Positions 3,043 to 56,088 of a DNA stretch of 64,000 bases are shown in pieces. Origin of the DNA: Candidatus Omnitrophota bacterium (GTDB taxonomy: Bacteria > Omnitrophota > Gorgyraeia > B26-G9); assembly GCA_043826565.1 (NCBI GenBank), contig JBDRPX010000004.1, forward strand, positions 10,232 to 74,231. The letters run 5' to 3'. Within the stretch, counting starts at the first letter, position 1; each line of letters starts with the position of its first letter. The notes below the pieces were generated by a model. It had not been told where the DNA came from. It made no database searches and saw nothing but the letters and a program-made list of their open reading frames with translations. A program made the translations under genes and the position numbers.

Positions 3043-3289
3043 TAAAATTAATTCAAAAGTCAAAGACCAAAAGTCAAAAATACAAATCAAAATTAAAAAG
3101 TTAAAAATAATATAACAGAATATATTGACAAAATTGAAAATAATCAAAAGTTGGATTCTATTAATAAGTGAACTGTTTGTTGATGATAGAATGCTTTAAA
3201 AATATTTCTTTAAATAATACAAATATATATTTTTGATTTTTGAATTTTGATTTCACAGTGTTGTGAAGAAAGGAAGGATGATTTAGTAT
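3043..3289. repeat. intergenic quasi-palindrome built from tandem CAAAAGT-like units (left arm) and their complement (right arm)
   Basis: tcaaaagtcaaagaccaaaagtcaaaaatacaaatcaaaatt ... tttttgatttttgaattttgattt. Confidence 0.6.
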
Positions 3290-5162: not shown

Positions 5163-5988
5163 ACAAAAGGGGAAAACTATAGGGTTTGTCCCGACTATGG
5201 GATATTTACATCAAGGGCATCTTTCTTTAGTCCGGCAGTCGGTTAAGGATGCTGATGTCACGGTGATGAGCATCTATGTAAACCCTCTGCAGTTTGGGCC
5301 GAAAGAAGATTTTAAGCTGTATCCCCGTGATATTAAAAGTGATATGAAACTTGCCAGGAGTTCCGGAGTAGACTATGTTTTTATTCCTTCTGATCAGGAT
5401 ATGTATGCTGAAAAGTATCTTACGACAGTGGAAGTTAATGAGATCAGCGGACGGATGTGCGGAGCTTCCCGGCCGGGTCATTTTAAAGGAGTTACCACAG
5501 TAGTAAGTAAGCTTTTTAACATTGTTTTGCCGGATATCGCGTATTTTGGTCAAAAAGATGCCCAGCAGGCTGTTATTATAGGGAAAATGGTTAAGGATCT
5601 AAATATGCCGGTCAAGGTAAAAGTCTTGCCGATTATTCGTGAGCCTGATGGTTTGGCCAAAAGTTCCCGTAATATTTATCTGAGCCCGGGGCAGAGGAAG
5701 GACGCGGCAGTATTATTTCAAGCTTTGCAGATCGCCCGCAAAATGATCATTGAGGGAGAGCGGAATCCCGGAAAAGTTATTTTAAGAATGAAAAGATTGA
5801 TTTCTCAGACGGAGTCTGTTACAATAAACTACATTGTAATCGCAGGAGCTGATGATCTGCTGCCGGGAAAAAAGATATCCGGAAGAACATTAATAGCTTT
5901 GGCGGTGTTTATCGGCAAGGTAAGATTGATTGATAATATAGTAATTAAAGTCAAAAGTCAAAAGTCAAAAATCAAAATTACAAGTTAA
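5110..5988 (+). CDS. panC: pantoate--beta-alanine ligase
   Basis: GFVPTMGYLHQGH (HIGH-like) and other PanC-wide conservation. It overlaps the preceding ORF by about 50 nt. Confidence 0.85.
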   Translation: MKLIRSVLRMQNLSKKLRQKGKTIGFVPTMGYLHQGHLSLVRQSVKDADVTVMSIYVNPLQFGPKEDFKLYPRDIKSDMKLARSSGVDYVFIPSDQDMYAEKYLTTVEVNEISGRMCGASRPGHFKGVTTVVSKLFNIVLPDIAYFGQKDAQQAVIIGKMVKDLNMPVKVKVLPIIREPDGLAKSSRNIYLSPGQRKDAAVLFQALQIARKMIIEGERNPGKVILRMKRLISQTESVTINYIVIAGADDLLPGKKISGRTLIALAVFIGKVRLIDNIVIKVKSQKSKIKITS

Positions 5989-6082
5989 AATTCAAAATGA
6001 AAAAGAGAATAGTTTTATAGTTGTTGTTTTTGAGTTGAACTTATGGGTTTTGACTTTTGAATTTTTAATTTTTTGAAGAGGG
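5945..6082. repeat. intergenic quasi-palindrome (gtcaaaagtcaaaagtcaaaaatcaaaatt ... ggttttgacttttgaatttttaatttt)
   Basis: Direct reading of the sequence. It lies between panC and panD. Confidence 0.65.
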
Positions 6083-8715: not shown

Positions 8716-8742
8716 GGTAATTTCTGTTAAATAAATATTATT

Positions 8743-8844
8743 GGCCCCTGTGAAGATCTCTTTACGGGGGCTCAATAGTCATTATAAATATATTATAAAG
8801 CAGTAAAATTTTTTATTTGTAGGGGCGGACCCCTGTGTCCGCCC
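8743..8844. other. two GC-rich hairpins sharing the motif CCCCTGTG
   Basis: 8743-8773 (GGCCCCTGTGAAG...CTTTACGGGGGC) and 8823-8844 (GGGCGGAC CCCTGT GTCCGCCC, perfect 8-bp stem). No downstream T-run, so they are not canonical terminators. Confidence 0.4.
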
Positions 8845-8944
8845 AATACTTAAAAATATATTAGGAATATTATTGATGGATTTTTCTGGTTACTGGAAAC
8901 CGGTAACTGGTTTCTTTAAAAAGAGGTGAAAGGAGTAGTTTGTT

Positions 8945-9262: not shown

Positions 9263-9365
9263 GAATAGACTAGAGACAGCAGACTAAAGACCAAAAATAA
9301 AAGAAGTCCATAGCTGATAGTCCATGGTCCATAGTCGAATCATTTGGAATCTGGGATGAAATAAT
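9263..9365. repeat. intergenic repeat block of GTCCATAG-like units
   Basis: gtccatagctgatagtccatggtccatagtcg. Confidence 0.5.
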
Positions 9366-13866: not shown

Positions 13867-14024
13867 AGTAGTTTGTAGCTCATAGCTGATGGTTCATAGT
13901 CAAAAGAAAAATGCTAAATAAAAAATTATTATTTATCATTATTTTGAAAATCCTATCAGTTAATTTTATACAGTTGTATTTTTTACTATGAGCAATAAAC
14001 TATGAGCCATAAGCTAATAAATAC
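13867..14024. repeat. intergenic quasi-palindrome of CATAG-containing units between tRNA-Leu and tRNA-Gly
   Basis: tagctcatagctgatggttcatagtc ... ctatgagcaataaactatgagccataagcta. Confidence 0.55.
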
Positions 14025-16363: not shown

Positions 16364-17941
16364 GTGAAGATACTAATAAGTGATCCTTTATCGGAAGAAG
16401 GAATAAAGATTTTAAGAGATAGAGGTCTTGCTTTTGATTTGAAACCAAAATTATCTCCGGAAGAATTAAAAAGTATTATCAGTGAGTATGATGCTTTGAT
16501 TATCAGAAGCGGAACAAAAGTAACTGCTGAGATTATCAAGGCTACTAAGAATCTTAAAGTTATCGGCCGGGCCGGAGTCGGTGTCGATAATGTGGATGTT
16601 GATGCGGCTACTCAAAAAGGGATCGTGGTAATGAATACTCCCGGCGGCAATACGATATCTACCGCAGAACATACCGTCAGTATGCTGCTTGCTTTAAATC
16701 GTAATATCCCTCAGGCAAATATTTCTTTAAAACAAGGACAATGGGAACGTAAAAAATTCCAAGGCAAGGAACTTTCTAAAAAGACATTAGGCATTATCGG
16801 CTTAGGCAGAATTGGTTTTGAAGTTGCTAAACGTGTGCAGTCCTTTGGGATGAAGGTTATCGCATATGATCCTTTCTTGTCCACAAAAAAAGCTCAACAG
16901 GTAGATATTGAGCTGGTTGAGCTTGATGAATTATTTAAACGTTCCGACTACTTGACTGTACATACACCTTTAAGTGATGAAACACGTCATATGATCGGAA
17001 AAAGTCAGTTTGATCAGATGAAAAAGGGAGTGAAGATCCTTAATTGCGCGCGCGGCGGTATCGTTGATGAAAAAGCACTTTATGAGGCGATAAAAAATGG
17101 AGTTGTTTCCGGAGCTGCTTTAGATGTTTTTGAGCAGGAACCGCCGGTAGATAATCCGCTGATAGGTTTAGATAGTGTTATTGCCACGCCTCATTTAGGC
17201 GCTTCGACCGATGAAGCCCAGGTGAATGTTGCGGTTGAGATTGCTCAGCAGGTCGCGGATATCTTAGAAGGTAAAGGAATTCGAAATGCCGTGAATTATC
17301 CCTGTATTGAAGGCGAAACATGTACTATTTTGGAACCTTATATGCGGCTGGCGGAAAAGCTGGGTTCTTTGCAAGCGCAGATTATTACTGGACATATCAA
17401 CAAAGTGAGTATAAAATATGGGGGAGAGATTGTAGGTCAGGAAGTCGCTCCTATAACAGTGGCGCTTATAAAAGGGTTACTGACCCCCATATTGCAGGAA
17501 TCAATAAATTTTGTTAATGCTCCATTTATTGCTAAAGAGCGGGGCATAGCGGTTAGTGAGACCAAAATTCTTGAAACAGAAGAATTTGCTAACCTGATCG
17601 GGGTTGAAGTTGAAACCGATCAGGGGAAGACATTTGTTGCCGGAACTTTGTTTTCTAAAAATAATCCGCGAATTGTCAGGATTAACGAGTTTTATATTGA
17701 TTCAATCCCGGAAGGTTACATGATCATAACTCATAATCACGACAAGCCGGGAATTGTGGGAGAAATCGGGACAATTCTTGGTGAGAATAACATCAATATC
17801 GGAGCCATGAATTTCGGCAGAACAGCTCCCGGAGGAGAATCCTTGGTGGTTTTGAATGTTGATGGAAATGTTTCCCGTGAAATTTTAGAAAAAATTAAAA
17901 ATAGTGAAAATGTACTTGATATTAAACTCATCAAGCTTTGA
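16364..17941 (+). CDS. serA: D-3-phosphoglycerate dehydrogenase (long form with C-terminal ACT domain)
   Basis: 2-hydroxyacid dehydrogenase NAD-binding motif GIIGLGRIG, a catalytic His region, and a C-terminal ACT-like segment. GTG start after GGAGG. Confidence 0.8.
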   Translation: MKILISDPLSEEGIKILRDRGLAFDLKPKLSPEELKSIISEYDALIIRSGTKVTAEIIKATKNLKVIGRAGVGVDNVDVDAATQKGIVVMNTPGGNTISTAEHTVSMLLALNRNIPQANISLKQGQWERKKFQGKELSKKTLGIIGLGRIGFEVAKRVQSFGMKVIAYDPFLSTKKAQQVDIELVELDELFKRSDYLTVHTPLSDETRHMIGKSQFDQMKKGVKILNCARGGIVDEKALYEAIKNGVVSGAALDVFEQEPPVDNPLIGLDSVIATPHLGASTDEAQVNVAVEIAQQVADILEGKGIRNAVNYPCIEGETCTILEPYMRLAEKLGSLQAQIITGHINKVSIKYGGEIVGQEVAPITVALIKGLLTPILQESINFVNAPFIAKERGIAVSETKILETEEFANLIGVEVETDQGKTFVAGTLFSKNNPRIVRINEFYIDSIPEGYMIITHNHDKPGIVGEIGTILGENNINIGAMNFGRTAPGGESLVVLNVDGNVSREILEKIKNSENVLDIKLIKL

Positions 17942-17976
17942 TATGGAAACCTTTAACTTTAGATAAGGGGTGGAGG

Positions 17977-19608
17977 ATGAAAGGTAAACTGTTGAATAAA
18001 TTATTTATCATGATGGTGAGTATTTTGATTCTTCCTGTAGCTGCCAGAGCAGAGCTTGTGCTGGTAGCGGATATCGGGATTGAAGCATTTGGCCCGGAAG
18101 TGAAGATTTCCGTCACTTCTAATCTGCCTTTGCAGATTGAAACATTTAAGAGTGAAGAAGGTTCATCAAACTATATAGTTGTCGATTTTTTAGGAGCAGT
18201 ATATTCAGATCTTCCGCCGGTTGTGGATATAAGCAGCGGTGCGGTAGAAAAAGTAAGTCTTGTGCGGGGAGAGGAACAGCCGGTATCAGTAGACGGAAAA
18301 GAATATTACACTCTCGATTTTTTAGCAATTAACTTAAATGCCGATGCTGATTACAAAGTTGATCAGGATATGAATGTTATTGATTTGAAAATTACTGCTG
18401 TTGCAAAATCAGATAAGCTGTCTAAAGAAAGTGAGGCGGTTGTTTTAGAACCGCCGGTAGTTGTTACCCCGAGGAAAGTGGAAGTACCCAAGATTGAAAA
18501 AAAAGAAGATGTTGAAAAAGCGGAAAAAGAAAATAAGAAAGAAGAAGCGAGATTAGCTAAAGAAGCAAAGAAGGCGGAAAGAGCAAAGAAAAAAGAAGAA
18601 GTGAGATTAGCTAAAGAAGCAAAGAAGGCGGAAAGAGCAAAGAAAAAAGAAGAAGCGGGATTGGCTAAAGAAAAGCTGGAGAAAAAAATAGAATCAAAAA
18701 ATCCTGAAAAGAAGAAAAATGTATTAATCGTAAAAGCAGAACCGGAGCAAAACCCGGAGGTTAAAAAGACGGTAAGCCGTGCTGTTGATCCGGCTAATAA
18801 ATATATAATTGATAAGGTTGTCCAAGATACTATGCGTGAAAAAGAGCAGGTTAATTCCCGCATTGAAGAATTGACCGCTCAGCTGCAGCGCATGCAGAAA
18901 GATCTTGACTCCACAAAAGGTGAAAAATCTAAGATAGAAAGTAAAATAAGCGAAATTCTGTCAAGACTTGATGATGTTAATGACGCTTTAGGACTGGAAA
19001 TTAAACGTCGTCGTGAGTTAGGTGAACAGGTTGAGGATTTGGTTGAAAAAAGAAAGGCCTATACGCAGGCAAAGAGAACATTTGAAACTGTTGCCGCACA
19101 GCTTGCCGATACAAATGACAAAGTTGATACTTTGACCGCGGAAGCAGCCGCGGTCAAAGGTAATATTAGTGAGCTGGAAAAAGAAAAGAGTCAGCTAGAG
19201 TCAAAATTTGGCGCGCTTAGTACGGAAAGCGGCCGCTTTGAGGCTGATTATGAAGAGGCTTTGGATTTAAGTAACCGGAGTTCTGCGAAAGTAGATGAAT
19301 TAAGAAGAAAGCTTGAGCAAATGGAGATGACTCTCGCCAAGACCCTAAAAGATGAAGAAGCGCTTAAAGCTAAAGTTAAGGATTTAGAAAGTAAAAGAAA
19401 ATTCAGCAGTATAGAAGCGTCAAATTTTAAACAAAAATTAATGGATAAAGAAATATTATTAGATAATCTCTCCAGAAAATATGAACAGCTGAATAACGAA
19501 TTGGAGCTATCTTTGATGCAAAAGGATAAGCTTGATGAAGAATATAAAGATGCCAAGAATAAATATGAACAAATTAAACGCGAAGTTAAAGAGTCTATTA
19601 AAAATTAA
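17977..19608 (+). CDS. secreted AMIN-domain protein with Lys/Glu/Ala tandem repeats and a long coiled coil
   Basis: Signal peptide, then an AMIN-like beta domain (LVLVADIGIEAFGPEVKISV...YIVVDFLGAVY), then repeated KEEARLAKEAKKAERAKKKEE units, then heptad-rich sequence. Confidence 0.55.
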   Translation: MKGKLLNKLFIMMVSILILPVAARAELVLVADIGIEAFGPEVKISVTSNLPLQIETFKSEEGSSNYIVVDFLGAVYSDLPPVVDISSGAVEKVSLVRGEEQPVSVDGKEYYTLDFLAINLNADADYKVDQDMNVIDLKITAVAKSDKLSKESEAVVLEPPVVVTPRKVEVPKIEKKEDVEKAEKENKKEEARLAKEAKKAERAKKKEEVRLAKEAKKAERAKKKEEAGLAKEKLEKKIESKNPEKKKNVLIVKAEPEQNPEVKKTVSRAVDPANKYIIDKVVQDTMREKEQVNSRIEELTAQLQRMQKDLDSTKGEKSKIESKISEILSRLDDVNDALGLEIKRRRELGEQVEDLVEKRKAYTQAKRTFETVAAQLADTNDKVDTLTAEAAAVKGNISELEKEKSQLESKFGALSTESGRFEADYEEALDLSNRSSAKVDELRRKLEQMEMTLAKTLKDEEALKAKVKDLESKRKFSSIEASNFKQKLMDKEILLDNLSRKYEQLNNELELSLMQKDKLDEEYKDAKNKYEQIKREVKESIKN

Positions 19609-19654
19609 TTTTGATTATTCGATAATTATTGGGAACAGAAAGGTAGGTGGATCC

Positions 19655-22222
19655 ATGAGGAAACGTTTTTTTCTGTTGTTAGTTACAACGGCCTTGATAA
19701 TTTTTACTGGTGGCGCGCAGCTTTTTGCTCAGTCGGTTGTCTTAACTGATACAGAAATTAAAGAGGATTCTGACGCCGTACAATTGTTGTTTTCAACTAA
19801 TCGGTCTATTCCCATTGAATGTTATGACCTAAGTACTCCCCCGCAAATCGTGATTGATTTTATGGGTGAAATATATAGTAATAAACCTGAGATCATGATG
19901 GTAAACAAAGGTGCTGTAAAACAGATACGTGTAATAAAGGGGACAAGACAAGCAGCAGACTTAGATGATGCGTATTATTCTGTTGATTTTATTATTGTGG
20001 ATTTAAAAGAAGCCTTGCGATATGACTTTAACCAAGGATTAACTACCGCGGTTTTAGTTATTTCAAAACCGGGAAAAATCGTTACGGCAAAAATTCCCCT
20101 GAAGGAAGTCCCGGAAGTAGAACCTAGGACGGTAAGTCCGGAACCGGTTGAAAAGAAAGTTGTGGAAAAAGAAGTTGTTAAGAAAGAAGCTGTTAAACCG
20201 GTAGTTACTGAGAAACCTTTGCCGGTCGTGAAAAAGGAAAAGCCGTTTTTACTTGAGGAAAAAGAGCGTGATGCTGAGCAGGTGGTAATGCCTGCGAAAA
20301 AAGCGGATAAGGTTGTGGAGGCTTCTGATGAAGGTACTGTCGCGAAAAGTTCCAAAGCGGTTGGTAAAGGAATAGCTAAAGGCGTAGGAAGTTTTGGCAA
20401 AGGAATAAAAAACTTCTTTGGAGGGAAAGATAAAGATTCCAAAGAAGAACCTAAGGAAAATAGAAAAAGCAGAAGATCCAGACAAAATAAGGTAGCCCAA
20501 AAGAAGGAAAAAGAAGAAAAGAAAGCTGCTGCGAAACCGCAAAAGAAACTTTCTGCAAAACCAAAGAAAACAAAGGAGTTCTCCATAGAATCGATCTCCT
20601 TAGAAGAAGCGACAAAAAACTTGGCGGGTGCTAAAAGGGAATGTGGAAAAGCAGAGGAAGAAGTAGATGCCTTAAAGAAAGAAGTTGCTGATATAAATGC
20701 CGGCTTGGAGCAGGAGAAGGAAAAATTCGAAAAGAAAAAATCCGAAATCTCCGCTACTGAGGAAAAGAAAGACAGTGCTGAGAAAGATTTTAAGGCTGCT
20801 TTAAAGAAAACAGATATTGCGAAGAACAAAGCGAACGCTGTCTGGGTCGAATATGCCGAGGTTAAAGATCAGTTAAGCAGTCTTTTAGAAGGGAATGAAA
20901 AAGAAAGTATTATTGAAGATAGACAAAAGAAATATGAGAAAAAGAAAGAAATACTGGAGTCTTCGATCCGAGAAGCAGAAGAAGCTAAAGCGGGAAGCGA
21001 CAAAAAACTAAAAGAATACAATTTCTTAAAAGAAGAAGTGGGTAAATTATCACAGGAAGCAAAAGATCCGGAAAAGAAGATTGAAGTATTACAAAACAAG
21101 CAGCGTGAAACAGAAAAAAAACTTAATCTGGCAATGAATGATTTGAATGCGGCAAATAAGAAATTATCAAAAGCCGGGAGAGATTATAAGAAATATGAAT
21201 TAGAGAAAGCTGATGAGGAATATCGAAAATCCTTATTGGAGATAGATGAAGAAATAATTGTTCAAATGGAAGATCGCAGCAGTAAGCACGTAGAGAAACA
21301 GAAAAATGAAGAAGAAAAACGTAAAAAAATAGTTGAGAAAACCGCGGAAAAAGAAGCCCAGATTGAAGAGGAAAAATTAGAGAAAGAAACGATCAGAGAG
21401 GAACGCGCTCGTAAACGAGAGGAAGCTTTAGCCGCGAGAAAAGCGGAAAGAGAACAGAAAAAGGAAGAGGCTCGATTAGCTAAAGAAGCGAAAATGGCTG
21501 AAAAGGAAAAGAAAAGAGAAGAGGCTAGGCTGGCTAAAGAAGAACGCAAGGCCCAAAGAGAAGAGAAAAGAGAAGAAGCTAGGTTAGCCAAAGAAGCGCA
21601 AGAAGAGCTTAATAGAGAAGAAGAGATAGCTGAGATTGCTAAACAAGATGCTCAGGAAGCAGCTTTATTGCTTGTGCAGGAAAAAAGGCTGAAAGAAGAA
21701 GTTGTTGAGGAATATGCTGAGGAAGAAGTTGCGGAAGAAGAGGTATTGGTTGTTCCTGAAGAAGATAAAGAAATTCGGCCAAAAAGAAGAAAGACAAGTC
21801 TTGCCGCTAAGAAAAAAGCAGTTGAACAAAAATCACCGCGGGAAGAGATCTTGAAATCAGCAGTTGAGTTGCGCAATGCCGGTCTGGAAATGCAGCGTAC
21901 CGGGGATTTGGACCGCGCACTTAGATATTACCAGAAAGCGTTGATGAGTGATCCGGAATATGCGGCGGTGCATAATGACTTAGGTATTCTTTATGAACAA
22001 AAAGGCTTGGATGAGAAAGCAAAAATGGAATATCTTAAAGCTTTAAAAATAAATCCTTATTATATAAAGTCTCACAGTAATTTAGCTCTTTTATATGAGA
22101 AGTTTGGAGATAATAATAAGGCGTATTATCATTGGAAGCAAAGGGCTGAGTTAGGAGATCCTAATGATCCATGGACTGGAAAAGCAAAAGAAAAAATGGA
22201 AGAATTTAAGCAGAGAAAGTAG
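19655..22222 (+). CDS. secreted AMIN-domain protein with Lys/Glu repeats, coiled coil and C-terminal TPR repeats (paralog of previous)
   Basis: Signal peptide, an AMIN-like domain (VVLTDTEIKEDSDAVQLLFS...IVIDFMGEIY), EEARLAKEAK repeat units shared with the upstream gene, and C-terminal TPR-like helices (ALRYYQKAL...YLKALKINPYY). Confidence 0.55.
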   Translation: MRKRFFLLLVTTALIIFTGGAQLFAQSVVLTDTEIKEDSDAVQLLFSTNRSIPIECYDLSTPPQIVIDFMGEIYSNKPEIMMVNKGAVKQIRVIKGTRQAADLDDAYYSVDFIIVDLKEALRYDFNQGLTTAVLVISKPGKIVTAKIPLKEVPEVEPRTVSPEPVEKKVVEKEVVKKEAVKPVVTEKPLPVVKKEKPFLLEEKERDAEQVVMPAKKADKVVEASDEGTVAKSSKAVGKGIAKGVGSFGKGIKNFFGGKDKDSKEEPKENRKSRRSRQNKVAQKKEKEEKKAAAKPQKKLSAKPKKTKEFSIESISLEEATKNLAGAKRECGKAEEEVDALKKEVADINAGLEQEKEKFEKKKSEISATEEKKDSAEKDFKAALKKTDIAKNKANAVWVEYAEVKDQLSSLLEGNEKESIIEDRQKKYEKKKEILESSIREAEEAKAGSDKKLKEYNFLKEEVGKLSQEAKDPEKKIEVLQNKQRETEKKLNLAMNDLNAANKKLSKAGRDYKKYELEKADEEYRKSLLEIDEEIIVQMEDRSSKHVEKQKNEEEKRKKIVEKTAEKEAQIEEEKLEKETIREERARKREEALAARKAEREQKKEEARLAKEAKMAEKEKKREEARLAKEERKAQREEKREEARLAKEAQEELNREEEIAEIAKQDAQEAALLLVQEKRLKEEVVEEYAEEEVAEEEVLVVPEEDKEIRPKRRKTSLAAKKKAVEQKSPREEILKSAVELRNAGLEMQRTGDLDRALRYYQKALMSDPEYAAVHNDLGILYEQKGLDEKAKMEYLKALKINPYYIKSHSNLALLYEKFGDNNKAYYHWKQRAELGDPNDPWTGKAKEKMEEFKQRK

Positions 22223-22226
22223 GATT

Positions 22227-23501
22227 ATGTCTAACTTAGTGATTGTCGGTGCTCAATGGGGAGATGAGGGCAAAGGAAAAATTATTGATATTCTCTCTAA
22301 AAACGCGGATTATGTTGTTAGGTATCAAGGCGGTAATAATGCCGGGCATACTGTGGTTGTCGGAGAAACTGAGATTATTTTACATCTTGTTCCTTCCGGG
22401 ATTCTGCATAAAAATAAAATTTGTGTTATCGGGAATGGAGTGGTTATTGATCCGCAAGCTCTGCTTACGGAAATCGCTTATCTTAAAGAACGAAATATTG
22501 ATGTTAAAAATAATCTTAAAATAAGTGATAGAGCGCATGTAATTTTTCCCTATCATAAGGTGCTTGATCAGCTTCGTGAAGAAAAGTTTAGAAAAACAAA
22601 GATCGGGACCACCGGTAGAGGGATCGGCCCGTCTTATACGGATAAGTTTTCCCGCGGAGGGATTCGTATCGGTGATCTTTTAAATAAGAAGATATTTAAA
22701 GAAAAATTAGAGTGTAATCTGGAAGAAAAGAATGCGATTTTTACCAAAGTGTATAAATATAAAAAGTTTTCTTTTCAACAGATATATACTCAGTATTTAA
22801 AGTATGCCGAAAAGATAAAGCCGTATGTATGTGATTGTTCGGTTCTTTTGAATGAAGCGATAAGTAAACGCAAAAAAATACTTTTTGAAGGAGCACAAGG
22901 AACACTTTTGGATATCGATAACGGTACTTATCCGTTTGTTACTTCTTCAAATTCTACTGCCGGAGGAGCTTGTGTGGGTACGGGAATAGGCCCGACCAAG
23001 ATTAATAAAGTTACCGGGATAGTAAAAGCATACACAACCCGCGTCGGAGAAGGTCCGTTCCCTACGGAATTTTCGGATGTATTGATGAAAAAAATAAGAC
23101 GTATTGGAAAAGAATTTGGGGCGACTACCGGCCGGCCGCGCCGTTGCGGATGGTTTGACGCTGTTGTGGTAAAACATGCGGTAGCGACTAACGGCTTAGA
23201 CAGCATTGTCGTAACTAAGCTTGATGTTCTGGATACAATGCCGTCATTGAAAATATGTGTGGGATATAAATATAAAGGAATACTGTATACTAATTTTCCG
23301 TCTGATATTGAGGTGCTTTGGAAAGCTAAACCGATATATGAGGAATGTGAGGGTTGGATGGCGGATACAACTCGAGCAAAAAAGTTTTCGGATCTGCCGG
23401 TAAACGCTCGTAAATATCTAAGTAAATTGTCTGGGTTAGTAGGTGCAAAAATTGAAATTGTGTCTGTCGGCTCAGAACGAAACCAAACATTATTTGTCTG
23501 A
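22227..23501 (+). CDS. purA: adenylosuccinate synthetase
   Basis: VIVGAQWGDEGKGK P-loop and GTTGRGIGP motifs. Confidence 0.9.
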   Translation: MSNLVIVGAQWGDEGKGKIIDILSKNADYVVRYQGGNNAGHTVVVGETEIILHLVPSGILHKNKICVIGNGVVIDPQALLTEIAYLKERNIDVKNNLKISDRAHVIFPYHKVLDQLREEKFRKTKIGTTGRGIGPSYTDKFSRGGIRIGDLLNKKIFKEKLECNLEEKNAIFTKVYKYKKFSFQQIYTQYLKYAEKIKPYVCDCSVLLNEAISKRKKILFEGAQGTLLDIDNGTYPFVTSSNSTAGGACVGTGIGPTKINKVTGIVKAYTTRVGEGPFPTEFSDVLMKKIRRIGKEFGATTGRPRRCGWFDAVVVKHAVATNGLDSIVVTKLDVLDTMPSLKICVGYKYKGILYTNFPSDIEVLWKAKPIYEECEGWMADTTRAKKFSDLPVNARKYLSKLSGLVGAKIEIVSVGSERNQTLFV

Positions 23502-23675
23502 AAGGAAAATCAAAAATCAAAAATTAGAAATCAAAATGACAAAGAAAAATGTAAAAAGAATAAAAAATTACAAGAAATAAAATATGATTGTTATTCTATG
23601 ATTTTTCTTTTATAATTTAGATTTGACATTTTGCATTTTGACCTTTGAATTTTGACTTTAACAAGGATACTAAAG
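23502..23675. repeat. intergenic quasi-palindrome (aaatcaaaaatcaaaaattagaaatcaaaatgac ... tttgacattttgcattttgacctttgaattttgac)
   Basis: Between purA and mgtC-like. The centre contains a TATAAT-like hexamer. Confidence 0.65.
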
Positions 23676-24353
23676 ATGATTTTATTTTTTGATGATATTG
23701 TTTATCATATAACTGTGCGGATAATGCTTGCGGCATTATTGAGCGGACTTATCGGGTATGAAAGAGAAATCCATGGCCGGGCGGCCGGGTTAAGAACAAC
23801 GATTCTTGTGGGAGTGGGGTCATGCTTAATTATGATAACCTCAATACACATGCATGAAATGTTCGGAGCAACGGCTAATGTTGATCCCGGAAGAATCGCG
23901 GCACAGGTAGTAAGCGGCATCGGGTTTTTAGGCGCCGGGACAATACTGCGTTTTCGCGCTTCGATAAGAGGATTGACTACAGCTGCCGGATTATGGGCAG
24001 TGGCCGGGATCGGACTTGCCGTAGGATGCGGTTTTTATTCTGCGGCGCTTATCTCCACAGCGGTTATTTATATCGTATTGGTAACCTTATCAAGATTCGA
24101 ACATAGAATAAAGAAAAAATTTGAAAAGACATTAAAAATTGATACTATTGGCGGTATTGATCAGCTTGCTAAAATTACTAAAGTTCTTTCGAGTTGTCAA
24201 ATAGAAATAAAAGACATTGAGATAATCGATGCCCTCCAGGAAGGTAAATTTTCTACGAATATGCAGCTGTTGATTTGTGATGAAGGCAGTAGCAGCCAAT
24301 TAACTGAGTCACTAGCCAACATTAAAGGTATAACTGCTATAAAATGGGGTTAA
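23676..24353 (+). CDS. MgtC/SapB-family membrane protein
   Basis: GLIGYEREIHGRAAGLRT motif, four TM helices, and a C-terminal soluble domain. Confidence 0.7.
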   Translation: MILFFDDIVYHITVRIMLAALLSGLIGYEREIHGRAAGLRTTILVGVGSCLIMITSIHMHEMFGATANVDPGRIAAQVVSGIGFLGAGTILRFRASIRGLTTAAGLWAVAGIGLAVGCGFYSAALISTAVIYIVLVTLSRFEHRIKKKFEKTLKIDTIGGIDQLAKITKVLSSCQIEIKDIEIIDALQEGKFSTNMQLLICDEGSSSQLTESLANIKGITAIKWG

Positions 24354-25063
24354 AGAAAAAAAAACAAACCAAGGGATCTTCCTCAAAACAAGCACATCAT
24401 ATTTCCCTAAAAGAGCATAGAGTTTGTACGGCACGCGTGGATGTTGGACGGGAAAAACGGCGTGGTTTTCCAGAAGTAATTTATTGTCCGCAAAAAACAA
24501 TTAAACAGATTGAGCAAATTTCCCGATGTATTCTTAAGCACAACGACACCTTGCTTTTAACCCGGGCTAATGAAAAAATATATAAATGTATTAAAAAGAT
24601 TGACCGCCGGGCGGTTTATAATAAACGGGCTAATCTTATTTACATTAAAAAGGAAAAAAAGATTTCCAAAAAAGGGTTAATTTTAGTTATCAGTGCCGGC
24701 ACAAGCGATATTCCGGTGGCGGAAGAGGCCGCGGTTACGGCTGAGCTTATGCAAAATAAAGTTGAACGTCTTTACGATGTCGGGGTTGCGGGAATTCATC
24801 GTTTACTGTCCGAATCTGAATTATTGAAAAAAGCTGATGTTTTAGTGGTTGTTGCCGGAATGGAAGGCGCTTTAGCCAGTGTGGTCAGCGGTATGGTCAA
24901 AAAGCCGGTTATTGGGGTGCCGACAAGTATTGGTTATGGAGCAAGTTTTTCCGGGATCGCGCCGTTACTGACAATGCTTAACAGTTGTTCTCCCGGAGTG
25001 TGTGTGGTGAATATCGATAACGGGTTTGGCGCCGGGTATTTGGCGGGAATGATTAATAAGTAA
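24344..25063 (+). CDS. larB: nickel-pincer cofactor biosynthesis protein LarB (PurE-like carboxylase/hydrolase)
   Basis: PurE-fold motifs (ISAGTSD, GMEGAL, VPTSIGYGAS) in an ~240-aa protein, adjacent to larC. Confidence 0.65.
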   Translation: MGLKKKKQTKGSSSKQAHHISLKEHRVCTARVDVGREKRRGFPEVIYCPQKTIKQIEQISRCILKHNDTLLLTRANEKIYKCIKKIDRRAVYNKRANLIYIKKEKKISKKGLILVISAGTSDIPVAEEAAVTAELMQNKVERLYDVGVAGIHRLLSESELLKKADVLVVVAGMEGALASVVSGMVKKPVIGVPTSIGYGASFSGIAPLLTMLNSCSPGVCVVNIDNGFGAGYLAGMINK

Positions 25064-25163
25064 GTTTCAAGTTTCAGGCTGCAGGTCGCAGGATGTATTG
25101 ATAAATCTTTTGCTTTAAGACTTGTGACTTGTGACTTGTGACTTGTGACTGGAGACTTTTTTT
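25064..25163. repeat. intergenic repeat: gtttcaagtttcag ... then GACTTGTG x4 tandem
   Basis: agacttgtgacttgtgacttgtgacttgtgactgg. Confidence 0.6.
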
Positions 25164-26342
25164 ATGACTAGGATTGCCTATTTAGATTGTTTTTCCGGAA
25201 TAAGCGGGGATATGCTCTTAGGTGCTTTTATCGATTGCGGCTTAAAAGTTGCTGATTTAAAAAAAGAACTGGTAAAACTGAATGTTAAAGGGATTGATAT
25301 TAAAACCAGACGAGTAAGGCGCGGGCACATTTCGGGAACTAAAGTAGATGTGATTGCCGGGGGTAAAATTAGATTTTCTAGTTTAAAGAGTATTTTTAAA
25401 CTTATTGATAATAGTAAGCTTGATTCTAAGATAAAAGATTCGGTAAAAAATATATATACAAATTTGGCCAAGGCAGAAGCTGAAGTTCATCATGAGAAAC
25501 TAGAGCAGGTGCATTTTCATCAGCTGGGAGCTTTAGATACGATCGTTGATATTGTGGGAGCTGTAGTAGCGATAAATTTGCTGGGGATAGAACAATTGTA
25601 TTCTTCAAGTATTACTCTGGGCACAGGCATGGTGCGCTGCGGCAAGGATGTATTTCCTTTACCGGCTCCGGCAACATTACAACTGATCAAAGGCCGGACA
25701 GTGTGCATGGATCCTTCTATTTCGCATGAATTGGTTACTCCTACCGGAGCGGCAATATTAGCTACTCTGGCGAAAGAAGTCAAGTTTTTGCCCATGAATA
25801 TTTTGAAAGTAGGTTACGGGGCGGGCAGTTATAATGATCCGGCTTTACCTAATTTATTAACTTTGATAATTGCCGAATCAAAGATATTACCGGAAAAAGA
25901 TAATATAATTGTCGTTGAGACAAATATTGATGATACCCTGGCTTTAAATTTTGAGGTGCTTTTTGAACGATTGTTTGCTGCCGGCGCGCTGGATGTATAT
26001 ACTGTTTCGGTGATGATGAAAAAAATGCGGCCGGGTATTTTACTGAGTGTCCAGGTTTGCGAGAGCCGTCTGGATGAAATTTTGGAGATAATTTTCGAGG
26101 AAACAACTACCCTGGGAGTCAGAATAAACAATGTTTCTCGTCGAAAGCTGCAAAGAAAAATCTTGAAACTCAAAAGCGAATATGGGATAATTGTGAGAGT
26201 GAAAATTGCGGCTTTGGGAGCAAAAACAATGAATATTGCTCCGGAGTACGAGGATTGCAAAAGAATTGCTTTAAAGAAAAACTTACCGTTTAAAAAAGTT
26301 TATGAGAAAATAAAAGCCCAGGCATTAAAGGAGTTTGCGTAA
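25164..26342 (+). CDS. larC: nickel insertion protein LarC (DUF111 family)
   Basis: The N-terminus YLDCFSGISGDMLLGA is diagnostic for the LarC/DUF111 family. Confidence 0.8.
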   Translation: MTRIAYLDCFSGISGDMLLGAFIDCGLKVADLKKELVKLNVKGIDIKTRRVRRGHISGTKVDVIAGGKIRFSSLKSIFKLIDNSKLDSKIKDSVKNIYTNLAKAEAEVHHEKLEQVHFHQLGALDTIVDIVGAVVAINLLGIEQLYSSSITLGTGMVRCGKDVFPLPAPATLQLIKGRTVCMDPSISHELVTPTGAAILATLAKEVKFLPMNILKVGYGAGSYNDPALPNLLTLIIAESKILPEKDNIIVVETNIDDTLALNFEVLFERLFAAGALDVYTVSVMMKKMRPGILLSVQVCESRLDEILEIIFEETTTLGVRINNVSRRKLQRKILKLKSEYGIIVRVKIAALGAKTMNIAPEYEDCKRIALKKNLPFKKVYEKIKAQALKEFA

Positions 26343-26347
26343 CTATC

Positions 26348-27196
26348 ATGAAAAGAAGACTTTATACATTAGTTGTTCCGCGATTTGAGGATATTTTTCA
26401 TTCTTATTTTGCGCAGGAGATTATTAAAGGTGCCAGTTCTGCGGCTAGCCATATAAATGCCGATTTGCTGATACATATTACCGAGCGTGGTTCTCATGAT
26501 GATTGGATAAGCGCTTGCGCGCTTAAACCGGGGTTTTCCGACGGGATAATGTTTGCGGATATTGATCAGGACCGGAGCGGGCTTAATAGAATTATTAGCC
26601 GGAATATCCCTCATCTTGTTTTAAATAATTATTTTGACGGTCCGGGAAATTGTATTGGTATTGATAATTATAAAGCAACTTTGAAAATTGTTGATTATTT
26701 ACTTAGGCTGGGGCATAAACGTATTGCGACGATTTGCGGAGAACTTAATACGCAAGCCGGATCACAGCGTTTAAAGGGGTTTAAAGACAGGCTTAAAGCT
26801 CATGGCCTAGAGGTTAATGACAAGTATATCAAGAAGGGGGAGTTTTTAAGAACTCCGGCCCGTCGTGCCGCCGAGTATCTGCTGGGCTTGGATAATCCGC
26901 CGACGGCAATTTTCGCGGCTAGTGATGTGATGGCTCTGGAAGTTTTGGATGTGGCTAAGAAAAAAAATATTAAGATACCTGAGGATTTATCAGTGATTGG
27001 TTTTGATGATAATCCGTTAAATGTTTACAGTCCTATATCTCTGACTACCGTGAGGCAGCCGATCGCGGAAATGGCCAGGATGGGGTTGGAGATATTAAAT
27101 AGAATTGTTAAAAGGCAGGAGAAACTTCCGGTAAAGCAGAAACTTTCGGCAAGACTGATTAAAAGAGACTCCTGCGGAGAATATAAAATAAAGTGA
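26348..27196 (+). CDS. LacI-type periplasmic-binding-fold (sugar-binding) domain protein lacking the HTH
   Basis: Peripla_BP_1-like sequence from residue 1 (LVVPRFEDIFHSYFAQEIIKG ... FAASDVMALEV ... IGFDD). There is no N-terminal DNA-binding helix-turn-helix. Confidence 0.55.
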   Translation: MKRRLYTLVVPRFEDIFHSYFAQEIIKGASSAASHINADLLIHITERGSHDDWISACALKPGFSDGIMFADIDQDRSGLNRIISRNIPHLVLNNYFDGPGNCIGIDNYKATLKIVDYLLRLGHKRIATICGELNTQAGSQRLKGFKDRLKAHGLEVNDKYIKKGEFLRTPARRAAEYLLGLDNPPTAIFAASDVMALEVLDVAKKKNIKIPEDLSVIGFDDNPLNVYSPISLTTVRQPIAEMARMGLEILNRIVKRQEKLPVKQKLSARLIKRDSCGEYKIK

Positions 27197-27199
27197 ATT

Positions 27200-27253
27200 A
27201 AGACCTCTCACCTAGGCAGGTTCGAGGTTAATTTGCTAAAGCAAATTAAGGAG
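27200..27253 (+). promoter_or_regulatory. conserved leader element, copy B (upstream of secG)
   Basis: AAGACCTCTCACCTAGGCAGGTTCGAGGTTAATTTGCTAAAGCAAATTAAGGAG, with the ATG 7 nt downstream. Confidence 0.55.
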
Positions 27254-27260
27254 AAGGAAA

Positions 27261-27665
27261 ATGTACACAGTTTTATTAATTGTTCATGTAATTGTTTCTT
27301 TGTTTTTGATTTTTATCATTTTGATTCAAAGCGGTAAAGGCGAGGGGCTTTCTGATGTTTTCGGCGGCGGATCAAGTCAAACGACTATTTTTGGCACCCG
27401 TACCGGGACTTTTTTAACAAAAGCTACGACGGCTTCCGCAATTATTTTTATGGTTACATGTTTGAGCCTTGCGTTTATATCCCGGAAAGAAGGCGGTTCG
27501 GTTGTGCAGCAGGAACTTCAAAAAGAACAGGTAAACGATAAAATAAAAGGACTTATGCAGGGAGCTAAAGAAGCCCAGGAAAAAGCTGCGTCAACACCAG
27601 CAGCACCGGCAATGGCTGAAAATGTCCCGGAACAAGCACCAACAACACCGGTTCAAGGGGAGTAA
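27261..27665 (+). CDS. secG: preprotein translocase subunit SecG (with extended Ala/Pro-rich C-terminus)
   Basis: The LLIVHVIVSLFLIFIILIQSGKGEGL...FGGG core matches the SecG signature, plus a second TM. Confidence 0.7.
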   Translation: MYTVLLIVHVIVSLFLIFIILIQSGKGEGLSDVFGGGSSQTTIFGTRTGTFLTKATTASAIIFMVTCLSLAFISRKEGGSVVQQELQKEQVNDKIKGLMQGAKEAQEKAASTPAAPAMAENVPEQAPTTPVQGE

Positions 27666-27806
27666 ATAAAATATACAATAGACAATAAACAATAAACAAA
27701 TTACAAGTAATAGACAAGGAACAAAGAATCAATAAAATTAGGATAAAATATTTTATTAAATTTTTTGTAATTTGGAATTTGTGATTTGTAATTTGTAATT
27801 TTAGGG
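27666..27806. repeat. intergenic quasi-palindrome (acaatagacaataaacaataaacaaattacaag ... ttgtaatttggaatttgtgatttgtaatttgtaatt)
   Basis: Direct reading. Confidence 0.65.
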
Positions 27807-27818
27807 ATGGGGGAGAGT

Positions 27819-29450: not shown

Positions 29451-29617
29451 AAAATTCAAAATTCAAAGGGCAAAACTCAAAACTGCAAGTCAAAACTAAA
29501 AAGTAGAAAATGAAAATCATTGTTTTAACTTTTGATTTTTGAATTGTATTTTTGACTTTTGAATTTTAAGTTTTGACTTATAAATTTCACCATATTGTTG
29601 TTAAAAGATTGGATAAA
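29451..29617. repeat. intergenic quasi-palindrome of TCAAAA(C/T)-type units and their complement
   Basis: aaaattcaaaattcaaagggcaaaactcaaaactgcaagtcaaaact ... ttttgatttttgaattgtatttttgacttttgaattttaagttttgac. Confidence 0.65.
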
Positions 29618-34778: not shown

Positions 34779-34812
34779 GCAGGATATCATAGATAAACAA
34801 AAAGGTGGCGTT

Positions 34813-36693: not shown

Positions 36694-36697
36694 TTAC

Positions 36698-38808: not shown

Positions 38809-38834
38809 TATAGGTTTAATAATTAGGGGGAAGT

Positions 38835-43201: not shown

Positions 43202-43212
43202 AAGGACGAAAA

Positions 43213-45376: not shown

Positions 45377-45377
45377 A

Positions 45378-49280: not shown

Positions 49281-49317
49281 TCCCGGACCAGAATTTGATT
49301 AAGATAGGGGAAAGATA

Positions 49318-51462: not shown

Positions 51463-51801
51463 GTAGATAAGGTTAACAGATAAGCCTGTTTTCGTCAAGG
51501 TACAAGACAGTCGCTAAGCGCTCAGCTACTGCGTTATTTTTTCGCTTACTTGTGCGACGTGCATTTTGCACGCCTCCGCGTTCGCTCAAAAAAGCCTTGT
51601 ATCTGAGCACTTTTCGACAGCTTGTATGATTCTTTATGGTTTTTGTTTAAGTTATCTGTGTCTTGGGTCTTGCGTCTTGAGTCTATTAATTTTTTCCCTT
51701 GTAAGTGTTTTTATGACTGTGATACAATTAAATAAATAGGGGCGGGGCAAAAATACCGCAGATATTTCATGGAATGGATTATTAAAGACAAGGAGTGGGG
51801 T

Positions 51802-53193
51802 ATGACTATTTATCGCCAAAGTTTATTTTTAGCAGCAGTTGTTATTCTTTCCTTAGTTTTCCTCTGTTTACCTTCTTACGCGCAGGATCCCCAGACTAAA
51901 CCGCCGGAAATTGCCGGAGAGTTTTTCGGCATGCCGGTACCTTCAAGTAATTACTTTTTTGCCAAAAGGGTGATCATGTCTTATGGCGCTAAATGGCGCG
52001 GATCTCCGCAAACCCAGGCAGAACTAGAAGATATGGTTTGGCAGGAGCTTTTATTTTCATTTGAAGCATATCGCCGGGGCATAGAGGTAAGCCAGGAGGA
52101 AATTGGCGAGGAAATCGAAAAAATATTAAAAGCGCAAAAGGCAGAATTCAATTGGCGCTTGGATAAAGAGGAATTTGAAAAATGGGCAAAGGATACTTTG
52201 GGGGTTCCGGTAGATATGTTCATGAATCAAATAGAACATTTGGCTAAGATCGAAAAACTGCGTCAGGAAGTGATCGATAGTATTGAACCGGAAGTTACGG
52301 ATGAGGAAGCTTATCAGAAATTTTTAAATGAGTATAATACTCTTTTGGTGGAATTGATCCAGTTTGATGATCTGGAAAAAGCAAAAGATTTTTATGAAAA
52401 GTCCATTCTGCCGATCGCGGATAATGCTCCGGAGCAGCTTGTTTGGGATGACTTAATTCTATCCGATGAGGCTTCCAAACGGGGAATTAAAGCCGAAGAT
52501 GAAGAGGTGGACAAAGCGGTTTCGGCATTATTGCGGGCCAAAGAAGCCAGGTTTAAGTGGCAAGAAGATAATGAATCGTTTAAAAAATGGATTGAGGAAA
52601 CAACCGGAGAAACCGAAGAAGGGTTTCGTCAGCGTTTTAAAGCTTTTGTAAAGATCGGTAAGCTTATGAACAAGATATCCGCAAAGGAAGAGCCGGAAAT
52701 TAAAGATAAGAAATATAAAAAGTTTCTTAAAAATAATAAGACTTATGCGCAGGCATATGCGGAGTTTTTCGCGGCTTATAAGCCAACAGGCGATGTCCTT
52801 AATTTTGCTTCTTTTGAAGAAGCCTTAGCTTATTATCAGAAGATAGATAGACAGCCGGGGTTCTGGGAAGACCGCAAGAGAGAAAACCCGGATCTATTTA
52901 AACAGCCGGGATTTGTGGCCCTGGATTTTCTGCTGAATATGTGGGGTTTTAAAAAAGAAGACGCTTATAAGATGCTGGATGCGGAAATCGGGGCGTATTA
53001 TCCGCCGTCTCCTATATATAAGGGATATGGTGTGTTTAAGATCCTGAAAATCCGTAAGGCAAAGCCTGAGGAATATGAGGGCCGCAAAGATTATTATGTG
53101 GAAAGGGTAAAATCTATCAAAAAATATGATGGTTTTACCGCGTGGGTCAAAGAGCTTAAAGAACAGGCTGATATAAAAAGATTTATTCAGTAA
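51802..53193 (+). CDS. secreted protein with internal ~100-aa repeats, function unknown
   Basis: Signal peptide ending AQD. Repeated blocks (KWRGSPQTQAELEDMVWQE... / ...RFKWQEDNESFKKWIEE...). RBS AAGGAG. Confidence 0.5.
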   Translation: MTIYRQSLFLAAVVILSLVFLCLPSYAQDPQTKPPEIAGEFFGMPVPSSNYFFAKRVIMSYGAKWRGSPQTQAELEDMVWQELLFSFEAYRRGIEVSQEEIGEEIEKILKAQKAEFNWRLDKEEFEKWAKDTLGVPVDMFMNQIEHLAKIEKLRQEVIDSIEPEVTDEEAYQKFLNEYNTLLVELIQFDDLEKAKDFYEKSILPIADNAPEQLVWDDLILSDEASKRGIKAEDEEVDKAVSALLRAKEARFKWQEDNESFKKWIEETTGETEEGFRQRFKAFVKIGKLMNKISAKEEPEIKDKKYKKFLKNNKTYAQAYAEFFAAYKPTGDVLNFASFEEALAYYQKIDRQPGFWEDRKRENPDLFKQPGFVALDFLLNMWGFKKEDAYKMLDAEIGAYYPPSPIYKGYGVFKILKIRKAKPEEYEGRKDYYVERVKSIKKYDGFTAWVKELKEQADIKRFIQ

Positions 53194-53308
53194 TAAGTGG
53201 TAAGAATTAAGGATTAAGAAGAAAACAAAAGGCAAAAAATAAAAGAAAAAAAATATAAATTAAAAAAATGTCACTTAATACTTACGACTTAATCCTTATG
53301 ACTTAATT
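53194..53308. repeat. intergenic quasi-palindrome (ttaaggattaagaag ... cttaatacttacgacttaatccttatgacttaa)
   Basis: Immediately upstream of the peptidase/kinase/PqqD/rSAM cassette. Confidence 0.55.
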
Positions 53309-54921: not shown

Positions 54922-54925
54922 GATT

Positions 54926-55762: not shown

Positions 55763-56021
55763 AGATAATGTTGTGGTTGTTACTCCGGCTAATAGTAAAG
55801 TTCATGTTTTATCCGGTATCGGCGGGCGAGTTTGGCAGCTGCTGGAAGAGGAAAAAACCGGACAACAGCTTAGCGAGATTATAATTGAGGAATTTGATGT
55901 GGGGATAGAGCAGGTCCAAGCGGATGTGGATGGTTTTTTGCAGGAGCTTTTGGAGAAAGAGATTATAAAAGTACAGAGGACAGAGGACAGAAAACAGAGG
56001 ACAGAAGAAACTACGTGCTAA
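55704..56021 (+). CDS. PqqD-family peptide-binding chaperone (RiPP recognition element-like)
   Basis: ~100 aa with the PqqD signature AAWQEIEDNVVVVTP...VHVLSGIGGRVWQLL...EF.V...V..DV..FLQEL. It overlaps the end of the kinase gene. Confidence 0.6.
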   Translation: MKFQKMMIERNAQAAWQEIEDNVVVVTPANSKVHVLSGIGGRVWQLLEEEKTGQQLSEIIIEEFDVGIEQVQADVDGFLQELLEKEIIKVQRTEDRKQRTEETTC

Positions 56022-56088
56022 AATTTTTTTCAGACTTCTGATCTCTGACATCGGATTTCTGACTTCTTGTTTTCCTTCGGAGAAGCGT
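55975..56088. repeat. quasi-palindrome (cagaggacagaggacagaaaacagaggacagaag ... cagacttctgatctctgacatcggatttctgacttct)
   Basis: The left arm lies inside the 3' end of the PqqD-like CDS (encoding QRTEDRKQRTEE). The right arm is intergenic before the rSAM gene. Confidence 0.55.

Follow-up and report, generated by a model that had tools for sequence, protein, structure and literature searches.

Tandem arrays of period 7 occur in the intergenic spacers of this Omnitrophota genome far above chance, and they constitute a dense, structured case of the widespread, functionally unexplained heptamer repeats of prokaryotic intergenic DNA. What is new here is the presence of several AT-rich unit families, the pairing of an A-rich array with a following T-rich array such that whole spacers are filled, and a conserved higher-order arm that prophages carry as well. 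The fixed polarity of the arrays, their limits at gene borders, the complementarity of their arms and their setting within conserved operons lead to specific hypotheses--namely, an intercistronic hairpin, a leader/anti-leader pair or a mutational by-product. There is also a practical side, in that the arrays break assemblies and can lengthen gene calls.

The window (i.e., the whole 64,000-nucleotide stretch of DNA that was analysed) has a GC content of about 39%. Its DapL protein is 80% identical to that of the PVC-group bacterium Gpa_23 and 61-74% identical to those of other Omnitrophota, the nearest genome compared being one of 68-80% protein identity. The window shows an extreme gene-strand bias, with 58 of its 60 genes on the plus strand, and a strong keto skew at 4-fold sites (G>C, +0.25; T>A, -0.23), the overall AT skew being positive.

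All ten of the regions that the original prediction had singled out as tandem-repeat arrays carry non-random arrays of period 7; TRF reports periods of 7, 14 or 21 at every one of them, with 2-8 copies for period 7. The pooled intergenic autocorrelation peaks at lags 7, 14, 21 and 28 (0.379, 0.373, 0.345 and 0.327, with neighbouring lags at about 0.30), and coding DNA, which shows 3-periodicity only, is flat at lag 7 (0.257). Relative to dinucleotide shuffles, the lag-7 z scores of the ten loci, taken in order from 3043 to 55975, are 2.8, 6.6, 4.5, 5.4, 6.1, 7.6, 6.2, 5.8, 5.4 and 5.5; those of 14 other window spacers range from -1.5 to 1.8. With a stringent array detector, lag 7 yields nine arrays, lags 5, 10 and 12 yield one or two, and lags 4, 6, 8, 9 and 11 yield no array; a loose detector finds 22 at lag 7 versus 1-6 at lags 4-6 and 8-11. 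The units are not 7-9 nt long, as first described: the period is 7 only, and the repeat that had been read as GACTTGTG x4 is better read as GACTTGT x4-5.

Base composition is not the cause of this signal. AT-rich loci of other phyla, at a GC content of 0.25-0.31, show no lag-7 excess. The excess is found in the window and in its AT-rich Omnitrophota relatives (L001-L005; 0.033-0.098), and is absent from GC-rich Omnitrophota. The loci of this clade have 2.1 arrays per kb of spacer, control loci 0.37 per kb, and 39 of the 55 arrays in the clade loci fall within 18.8 kb of spacer, a strong non-coding bias. Nor are the arrays assembly artefacts, because an independent Logan contig is 100% identical to the window across 18626-29559; this contig ends inside the array at 29559, its other break being at 18626.

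Table 1. Arms and single arrays of the heptamer loci, in window coordinates
Feature	Position	Strand	Units and remarks
A-rich arm, dapB/dapL spacer	3053..3110	+	TCAAAAN family: 4 heptamers, 6-nt TACAAA unit, then more units
T-rich arm, dapB/dapL	3223..3253	+	TTTTGAN units; 37 nt upstream of ATG 3290
A-rich arm, panC/panD	5947..6004	+	First 42 nt code the last panC residues; stop at 5986-5988
T-rich arm, panC/panD	6028..6075	+	Stops 8 nt short of GTG 6083
Left array, hypothetical gene/rmuC spacer	9268..9292	+	GACTAGA/GACAGCA/GACTAAA; weak partner of right array
Right array, hypothetical gene/rmuC	9305..9336	+	AGTCCAT/AGCTGAT; complementarity to left array not significant
Left arm, tRNA-Leu/tRNA-Gly	13869..13905	+	TAGCTCA/TAGCTGA; begins 3 nt past tRNA-Leu
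Right arm, tRNA-Leu/tRNA-Gly	13980..14016	+	ACTATGAGCAATAA x2; stops 8 nt short of tRNA-Gly
A-rich arm, purA/mgtC	23504..23573	+	TCAAAAN family
T-rich arm, purA/mgtC	23602..23659	+	Includes TTGACA; stops 16 nt short of ATG 23676
Left arm, larB/larC	25061..25093	+	GTTTCAA/GCTGCAG units; overlaps TAA stop
Right arm, larB/larC	25112..25159	+	GACTTGT x4-5, then T7 and ATG 25164
A-rich arm, secG/SBP5	27664..27712	+	ACAATAA units
T-rich arm, secG/SBP5	27760..27804	+	TTTGTAA units, then ribosome-binding site GGGGGAGAG and ATG 27819
A-rich arm, SBP5/M48	29451..29509	+	TCAAAAN family; begins 1 nt past stop
T-rich arm, SBP5/M48	29523..29587	+	Mirror of the layout of 4 heptamers plus 6-nt unit
Left arm, SurA-like gene/S24 peptidase gene	53185..53221	+	TAAGNNN units
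Right arm, SurA-like gene/S24 peptidase gene	53273..53308	+	ACTTAAT/ACTTACG units; touches ATG 53309, without ribosome-binding site
A-rich arm, PqqD-like gene/radical-SAM/SPASM gene	55968..56010	+	ACAGAGG units; inside the PqqD-like 3' end, stop at 56019-56021
T-rich arm, PqqD-like gene/radical-SAM/SPASM gene	56028..56067	+	TTCTGAC units; next ATG 56089; weak pairing
Compact heptamer-built hairpin, additional to the ten loci	8886..8910	+	CTGGTTACTGG-AAA-CCGGTAACTGG, then TTTCTTT
Single T-type array, sole divergent spacer	51651..51688	+	GTCTTGN x4; no partner arm; just upstream of promoter-like site 51699-51728

The arrays have a common arrangement with respect to the genes that flank them. The purine-rich or A-rich arm begins 0-14 nt past the stop codon of the upstream gene or the end of the tRNA, except at 27666, where the distance is 30 nt, and the T-rich arm ends 2-41 nt ahead of the next start. 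At every locus of asymmetric composition it is the 5' arm that is purine/A-rich and the 3' arm that is T-rich, a polarity that is found in relatives as well; the array spacers as a whole are 75% A+T and 10% C. Not one array, as had been stated, but two run into a coding 3' end (that of panC, to 5988, and that of the PqqD-like gene, to 56021). Nearly all of the T-arm units of the window and of the prophages described below hold a stop triplet, either TGA (TTTTGAN, CTTGTGA, TTCTGAC) or TAA (TTTGTAA, ACTTAAT), and, because 7 is coprime to 3, three such units supply each reading frame with a stop shortly before the next start codon. Tandem repeats of another kind lie within coding sequence: 54-nt repeats at 18520-18672 and 21447-21602 code for Lys/Glu-rich units in two large neighbouring genes. 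These genes span 17938-19608 and 19532-22222, and the second also has C-terminal TPR repeats.

At least six unit families occur in the window (TCAAAAN, ACAATAA, ACAAGTC, ACAGAGG, TAAGNNN and TAGCTGA). The earlier statement that the unit sequence differs between loci does not apply to four of them, which share the TCAAAAN family (eight arms in all); TCAAAANTCAAAANTCAAAA, with up to three mismatches, is matched 34 times where 0.69 matches are expected. The TCAAAAN arm has a conserved higher-order layout of about 45 nt--four TCAAAAN heptamers, a 6-nt unit (TRCAAN), TCAAAAY and further units--which is common to the four window loci and to the SBP5/M48 junction of the relative L048; the opposite arm shows the mirror image of this layout. 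Within the 64 kb the remaining families are single-copy, and families built on AAAACAG, AAAAGTT, AAATTAC and AACCAGT recur across species at non-orthologous loci.

Because the two arrays of a locus are complementary, the whole spacer can fold as one long hairpin having a mismatch at about every seventh base. When the arms were aligned by Watson-Crick pairing and scored against per-half shuffles, the alignment was significant at six of the ten loci (3043, 5945, 13867, 23502, 29451 and 53194; z 3.6-6.8). Two more, 25064 and 27666, pair only with G.U allowed (RNA fold z of -4.4 and about -5), and at 9263 and 55975 pairing is weak. The complementary arms proposed for these loci are, in other words, borne out at eight of the ten but are weak at the remaining two. 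A repeat search likewise recovered, at eight of the ten loci and often in several registers, arms of 18-58 nt with 72-88% complementarity; taken singly these arms are not palindromic, being AT-rich direct-repeat arrays that pair only with the other arm. Within the predicted hairpins 5-6 pairs are followed by a mismatch, recurring with period 7, and the predicted base lies 0-14 nt past the stop codon or tRNA end at eight of nine loci and 7-41 nt ahead of the next start. Apparently similar long imperfect hairpins, not known to have heptamer periodicity, occur at several intercistronic junctions of phage operons as the RNase III processing hairpins of phage T7.

Fold z scores are similar on both strands except at 25064, where the plus-strand RNA folds at -32.8 kcal/mol (z -4.4) versus -11.9 kcal/mol (z -0.7) for the minus strand; there the right arm pairs with the left through G.U only, and on the plus strand only, with a GGAG ribosome-binding site within the stem. 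The predicted pairs include 73 G.U on the plus strand versus 37 on the minus strand. This asymmetry was considered as proof of selection at the RNA level and was rejected as such, in that the keto skew at 4-fold sites predicts the same bias; action of the hairpins at the RNA level remains putative because this skew explains the 2:1 plus-strand excess. Within the TCAAAAN family, moreover, the seventh unit position shows no covariation or complementarity between arms. Locus-specific compensation was likewise rejected for this family, arm identity being 0.71-0.77 within an element versus 0.60-0.88 between elements.

Another spacer, at 8716-8944, folds at -70.4 kcal/mol (z -5.3 versus its shuffles) and holds two GC hairpins plus the heptamer hairpin at 8886-8910; it lies upstream of a 105-aa open reading frame having no Pfam match, and might act as a structured leader or encode a small RNA. 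The GC-rich hairpin motif TGTAGGGGCG(G/T)..loop..CGCCC, often followed by an ATAAT-like sequence, is dispersed among spacers of several Omnitrophota as a second element of this kind: it is found at 8817-8844 of the window, at 11183-11210 of L048, in the dapB/dapL spacers of L003 and L004, and at about 3357-3385 of L004, and it has no Rfam match at gathering score.

According to Pfam annotation, five of the loci lie inside likely operons or between tRNAs: dapB/dapL (which follows lysA-dapF-dapA), panC/panD, larB/larC, pqqD/rSAM and tRNA-Leu/tRNA-Gly. The remaining loci are purA/mgtC, secG/SBP5, SBP5/M48, the SurA-like/S24 peptidase gene spacer and the hypothetical gene/rmuC spacer. Half of the loci thus sit within likely operons, which makes a terminator-plus-promoter module unlikely. 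A 17-gene polysaccharide cluster (33396-49878) has neither spacers nor arrays. The gene group at 53309-57096 encodes an S24-like peptidase, an NTP_transf_5 protein, a 278-aa protein of no assigned family, a PqqD-like protein and a radical-SAM/SPASM enzyme, with a histidine kinase and a sigma-54 response regulator downstream; it is possibly a RiPP-type cluster.

The proposal that the arrays are terminators, and that they bracket the downstream promoter, fares poorly on both counts. Intrinsic terminators are characterized by a GC-rich stem, a loop of 3-8 nt and a U tract; the arrays, because their stems are AU-rich and their loops large (13-135 nt), would be poor ones, and a consensus scan flags only 8886-8910 among these loci. 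A run of at least four T residues follows the arm in about half of the loci. As for promoters, sigma-70-like sites, defined by -35 and -10 hexamers at a spacing of 16-18 nt, occur in only two of the ten centres (23588-23616 and 27711-27738), five loci being inside operons or between tRNAs, and promoter-like counts overall lie at most about 2 sd above the shuffle means. A promoter within the centre or the T arm was rejected: three loci have a fitting geometry, yet the -10 region is poor, and its conservation is below that of the spacer. A Shine-Dalgarno sequence is absent at 53309 and is present as GGAG within the arm at 25164; other window genes keep one after the arm.

Comparison with relatives reveals rapid turnover. 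Because dapB and dapL are 1 nt apart in GC-rich Omnitrophota, the arrays are insertions or expansions at tight junctions. The orthologous junctions of relatives carry arrays of other units, or none. At the same junctions some have hairpins of unrelated sequence (L001, z -4.6; L005, z -5.2; L049, z -3.9; L002, z -7.8), several of which finish in ACTTTT(T). Two close relatives, L003 and L004, have flanks that are 88-95% identical yet arrays that differ, with TAGCCAG units directly past the stop codon in the former and AGTTACG units in the latter. This amounts to replacement or concerted evolution, much faster than point substitution, and it lends support, along with perfect adjacent copies, to the suggestion that slippage generates the repeats. 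In L003, L004 and L006 an array without a partner follows the stop, and single arrays in Omnitrophota generally are mostly of the A type, after stop codons. When metagenomes were scanned for close relatives, no more than two loci came up, both of them distant. As to whether the arrays are lineage-specific, the answer is mixed: their density is limited to one AT-rich clade of Omnitrophota, but intergenic heptamers are known across prokaryotes and the TCAAAAN arm occurs in Chloroflexota-linked prophages as well.

This latter link emerged from IMG/VR, a scan of which yielded seven matches to the TCAAAAN arm pattern and 42 stretches matching a 19-mer pattern, about 32 of them in GC-rich contigs (0.52-0.61). 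The arm-bearing GC-rich contigs encode portal, HK97 capsid and head-decoration genes; homologues of the capsid (76-95% identity) are found in long MAG contigs named Dehalococcoidia or Chloroflexota, and there is no cultured relative. In the prophage head operon, at least four intergenic junctions hold the element, and its polarity there is the same: the A arm comes right after a stop (e.g., the capsid stop, L072 and L074), and the T arm precedes the next start. Two of the junctions lack a Shine-Dalgarno sequence, their ATG being 34-36 nt downstream of TTGTCA. Which arm holds the conserved 19-mer, A or T, varies from junction to junction. T arms stand alone in L052 and L054, and at one and the same junction the element is variably present (L054 versus L080 and L092; absent in L097). 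Shared units reach further, in that AGTAGCCAG is common to L057 and to L003 of the Omnitrophota, and L097 carries CAGAAGT and CTACTGA units. The prophage hairpins are significant in L095 (z -4.3 and -5.2); the fold of the L057 element is not (z -1.2 and -0.3). Covariation over an orthologous prophage junction gave one possible U-A to C-G double change (L053), which falls short of support, the eight sequences being too alike. That an AT-rich TCAAAAN island is kept within GC-rich phages argues for function or active spread and against junk.

Several other features of these contigs may be recorded here. L097 7325-15870 (Dehalococcoidia MAG JBAVCL010000033.1) and L052-L096 comprise a compact head-only module flanked by host genes and consisting of an HTH protein, an SPP1-type portal, an HK97 capsid and a few small genes; its capsid has thousands of homologues at 76-95% identity in metagenomes, and the module could be a domesticated or GTA-like element of Chloroflexota. 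In two viral contigs (L055 12473-12505 and L058 6753-6785) a perfect (TTCAAAA)x4 followed by TTACAA lies in frame in a leucyl-tRNA-synthetase-like gene, where it encodes FKIQNSKFKIT in a variable loop. Finally, the prophage spacers of the heptamer element have two more recurrent features, the conserved repeat GGCACGAAGTGCCGTGGCAATCCC and the strong hairpin GGGAGGGGG..CCCCCTCCC: in L053, L066, L079, L087, L088 and L091, between the capsid stop and the heptamer element, and at L097 11080-11140.

The explanation that is tentatively preferred, with a confidence just short of even, is that the arrays are driven by slippage and kept as REP-like intercistronic RNA hairpins of putative function. Slippage by 7 nt would grow, homogenise and replace the arrays (i.e., concerted evolution), drawing upon a small vocabulary of unit families, and the arrays would act in cis on the polycistronic transcript. 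Such a hairpin might remove the spacer as a loop, shield the 3' end of the upstream message or attenuate read-through in part, and the U-rich leader of the following cistron might be hidden or exposed by it; on this account the arrays would not be full terminator-plus-promoter modules. In its favour are the period-7 signal and arm complementarity, the position of the hairpin base at the gene borders, the setting within operons, the hairpins of unrelated sequence at the same junctions of relatives, the constant polarity, the fast turnover, the TCAAAAN arm of GC-rich prophages and the precedent of REPs. Counting against the hairpin are the single-armed arrays (L003, L004, L006 and 51651; L052 and L054), the two weakly pairing loci, the similar fold z scores of the two strands, the seventh position without covariation and the AU-rich stems with their large loops.

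The same slippage might also be all that there is. A lineage-specific 7-nt slippage bias that fills spacers with arrays, combined with template switching at quasi-palindromes that copies one arm from the other, would yield a mutational by-product having no function beyond being tolerated, and much of the above agrees with this: the replacement of arrays between close relatives, the perfect adjacent copies, the seventh position without covariation, the spilling of arrays over coding 3' ends and the junctions of relatives that have no array, as well as the fact that heptamers are the commonest long simple repeats of prokaryotes, for which polymerase slippage has been proposed (PMC4679880; PMC4692102). 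It is nevertheless considered unlikely. All of the paired loci keep to the A-then-T polarity, the array limits coincide with gene borders, and the same arm of about 45 nt persists in GC-rich prophages and across two phyla; independent homogenisation, moreover, should soon destroy complementarity, yet eight of the ten loci keep it.

Of comparably low probability is a reading in which the T-rich array is primary, serving either as a U-rich leader for a single-strand binder with a footprint of about 7 nt--candidates being a cold-shock domain, an S1-type OB fold or the ribosome itself--or as a promoter or UP-like element, with the A array as its anti-sequence. T arms do touch start codons, sometimes in the absence of a Shine-Dalgarno sequence (53309; prophage junctions), lone T arms exist (L052, L054), and the sole non-heptamer unit, TTGACA/TTGTCA, is followed 17-18 nt later by NANNNT. 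Precedents can be cited: TAACTGA repeats lie directly upstream of Beggiatoaceae starts, with S1, Csp and CsrA proposed as readers (PMC4679880), and CspB, one molecule of which binds one heptamer, has a consensus GTCTTTG/T (PMC1904285) that resembles the GACTTTT, GTCTTGN and GACTTGT units. Yet the 19-mer is conserved in either arm depending on the junction, which leaves no asymmetry between the strands; conservation of the candidate -10 region is below that of the spacer; single Omnitrophota arrays are mostly of the A type; and arrays also flank tRNA genes (in the window and in L005), where translation is irrelevant. A bolder generalization, which we rate as somewhat less probable still, is that heptamer arrays are a cis-regulatory code common to phyla and phages, in which a ubiquitous single-strand binder with a footprint of about 7 nt (again a cold-shock domain, an S1-type OB fold or the ribosome) reads the U-rich array ahead of a cistron and the A-rich array past the preceding stop codon is its anti-sequence. 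If this were true, then translation or factor binding would set the expression of each operon cistron, and the code would account for the prime-number 7 periodicity of prokaryotic intergenic DNA.

A mobile origin, by contrast with in-situ growth, would have non-autonomous palindromic elements (REPIN- or MITE-like) inserting whole into spacers. The sharing of the TCAAAAN layout by four window loci and L048 in both arms, the rule that both arms of a locus belong to the same family, the variable presence at one prophage junction and the Logan contig break inside an arm would all fit. We regard it as quite improbable given that about 60 window proteins include no transposase or RAYT (REP-associated tyrosine transposase) by Pfam, that the centres are unrelated and do not align, that the flanks show no target-site duplication (these last two also leading to rejection of MITEs), that most families are single-copy in the window and that in-situ concerted evolution is visible. 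Hardly credible is a putative DNA-level element, either a cruciform or a site for a nucleoid or replication protein: fold z scores for the two strands are much alike, the arm sequence is conserved whichever strand it lies on, and periodic mismatches might shield long palindromes from cleavage, but with a 7-bp spacing each site is rotated by 240 degrees from the one before, an awkward arrangement for proteins that bind duplex DNA, 25064 pairs on one strand only, and polarity tracks gene direction just as the borders track stop and start codons. Integron attC sites were dismissed since the flanking genes are syntenic housekeeping genes, CRISPR arrays since there are no spacers of that kind, and A-tract bending since 7-bp phasing cancels planar bends.

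With the intercistronic hairpin as the preferred reading, the arrays may be set beside systems already described; the library of papers searched includes none containing these sequences or tying Omnitrophota to such repeats. In many prokaryotes tandem heptamers are reported to outnumber every other periodic repeat between genes, and they have no known function (PMC6344855). Like those reported previously (the long simple repeats of Mrazek 2007; the STRR of Calothrix and Nostoc; Mori et al., PMC6344855), the arrays here consist of 7-nt units arranged head to tail, are strongly intergenic and vary between relatives. They differ in having at least six unit families per 64 kb rather than one to three per genome, and in being degenerate arrays in complementary pairs that fill whole intra-operon spacers, rather than perfect arrays.

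REP, BIME and REPIN sequences of Enterobacteria and Pseudomonas are likewise extragenic, often intra-operon and 3' of genes, are transcribed as hairpins and vary in location by strain; as intra-operon elements REPs both terminate and stabilise, with effects on read-through, which they attenuate, and on the message upstream, which they stabilise (bioRxiv 10.64898/2026.03.23.713779). However, a REP is 20-40 nt long, GC-rich and itself palindromic, with one genome-wide consensus and a RAYT, whereas the present arms are 30-70 nt, AT-rich and 7-periodic, in a window that encodes no RAYT among its roughly 60 proteins.

The TAACTGA direct repeats of marine Beggiatoaceae, cyanobacteria and Bacteroidetes (MacGregor 2015, PMC4679880) resemble some of the present arrays, those at 53309, at 25164 and at two prophage junctions, in that forward arrays end a few nt from starts, often replacing the Shine-Dalgarno sequence. 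They too are found in more than one phylum, no vehicle for this being known, and similar units are present here as CTACTGA in L097 and TTACTGG in L049. That system, however, is based on a single unit, almost only in direct repeats (with one inverted case), and lacks a partner array after the upstream stop. Opposed arrays are found in Xanthomonas, each genome of which has 70-75 convergent inverted pairs of GGGAATC arrays (Rehm et al. 2015, PMC4692102). There, as at eight of the ten loci here, heptamer arrays on opposite strands share one spacer and may form a stem-loop, and there too the repeat type is kept between species as its length varies. The Xanthomonas pairs are built, however, from one G-rich, G-quadruplex-capable unit, whereas those described here draw on several AT-rich families and keep a constant A-then-T polarity.
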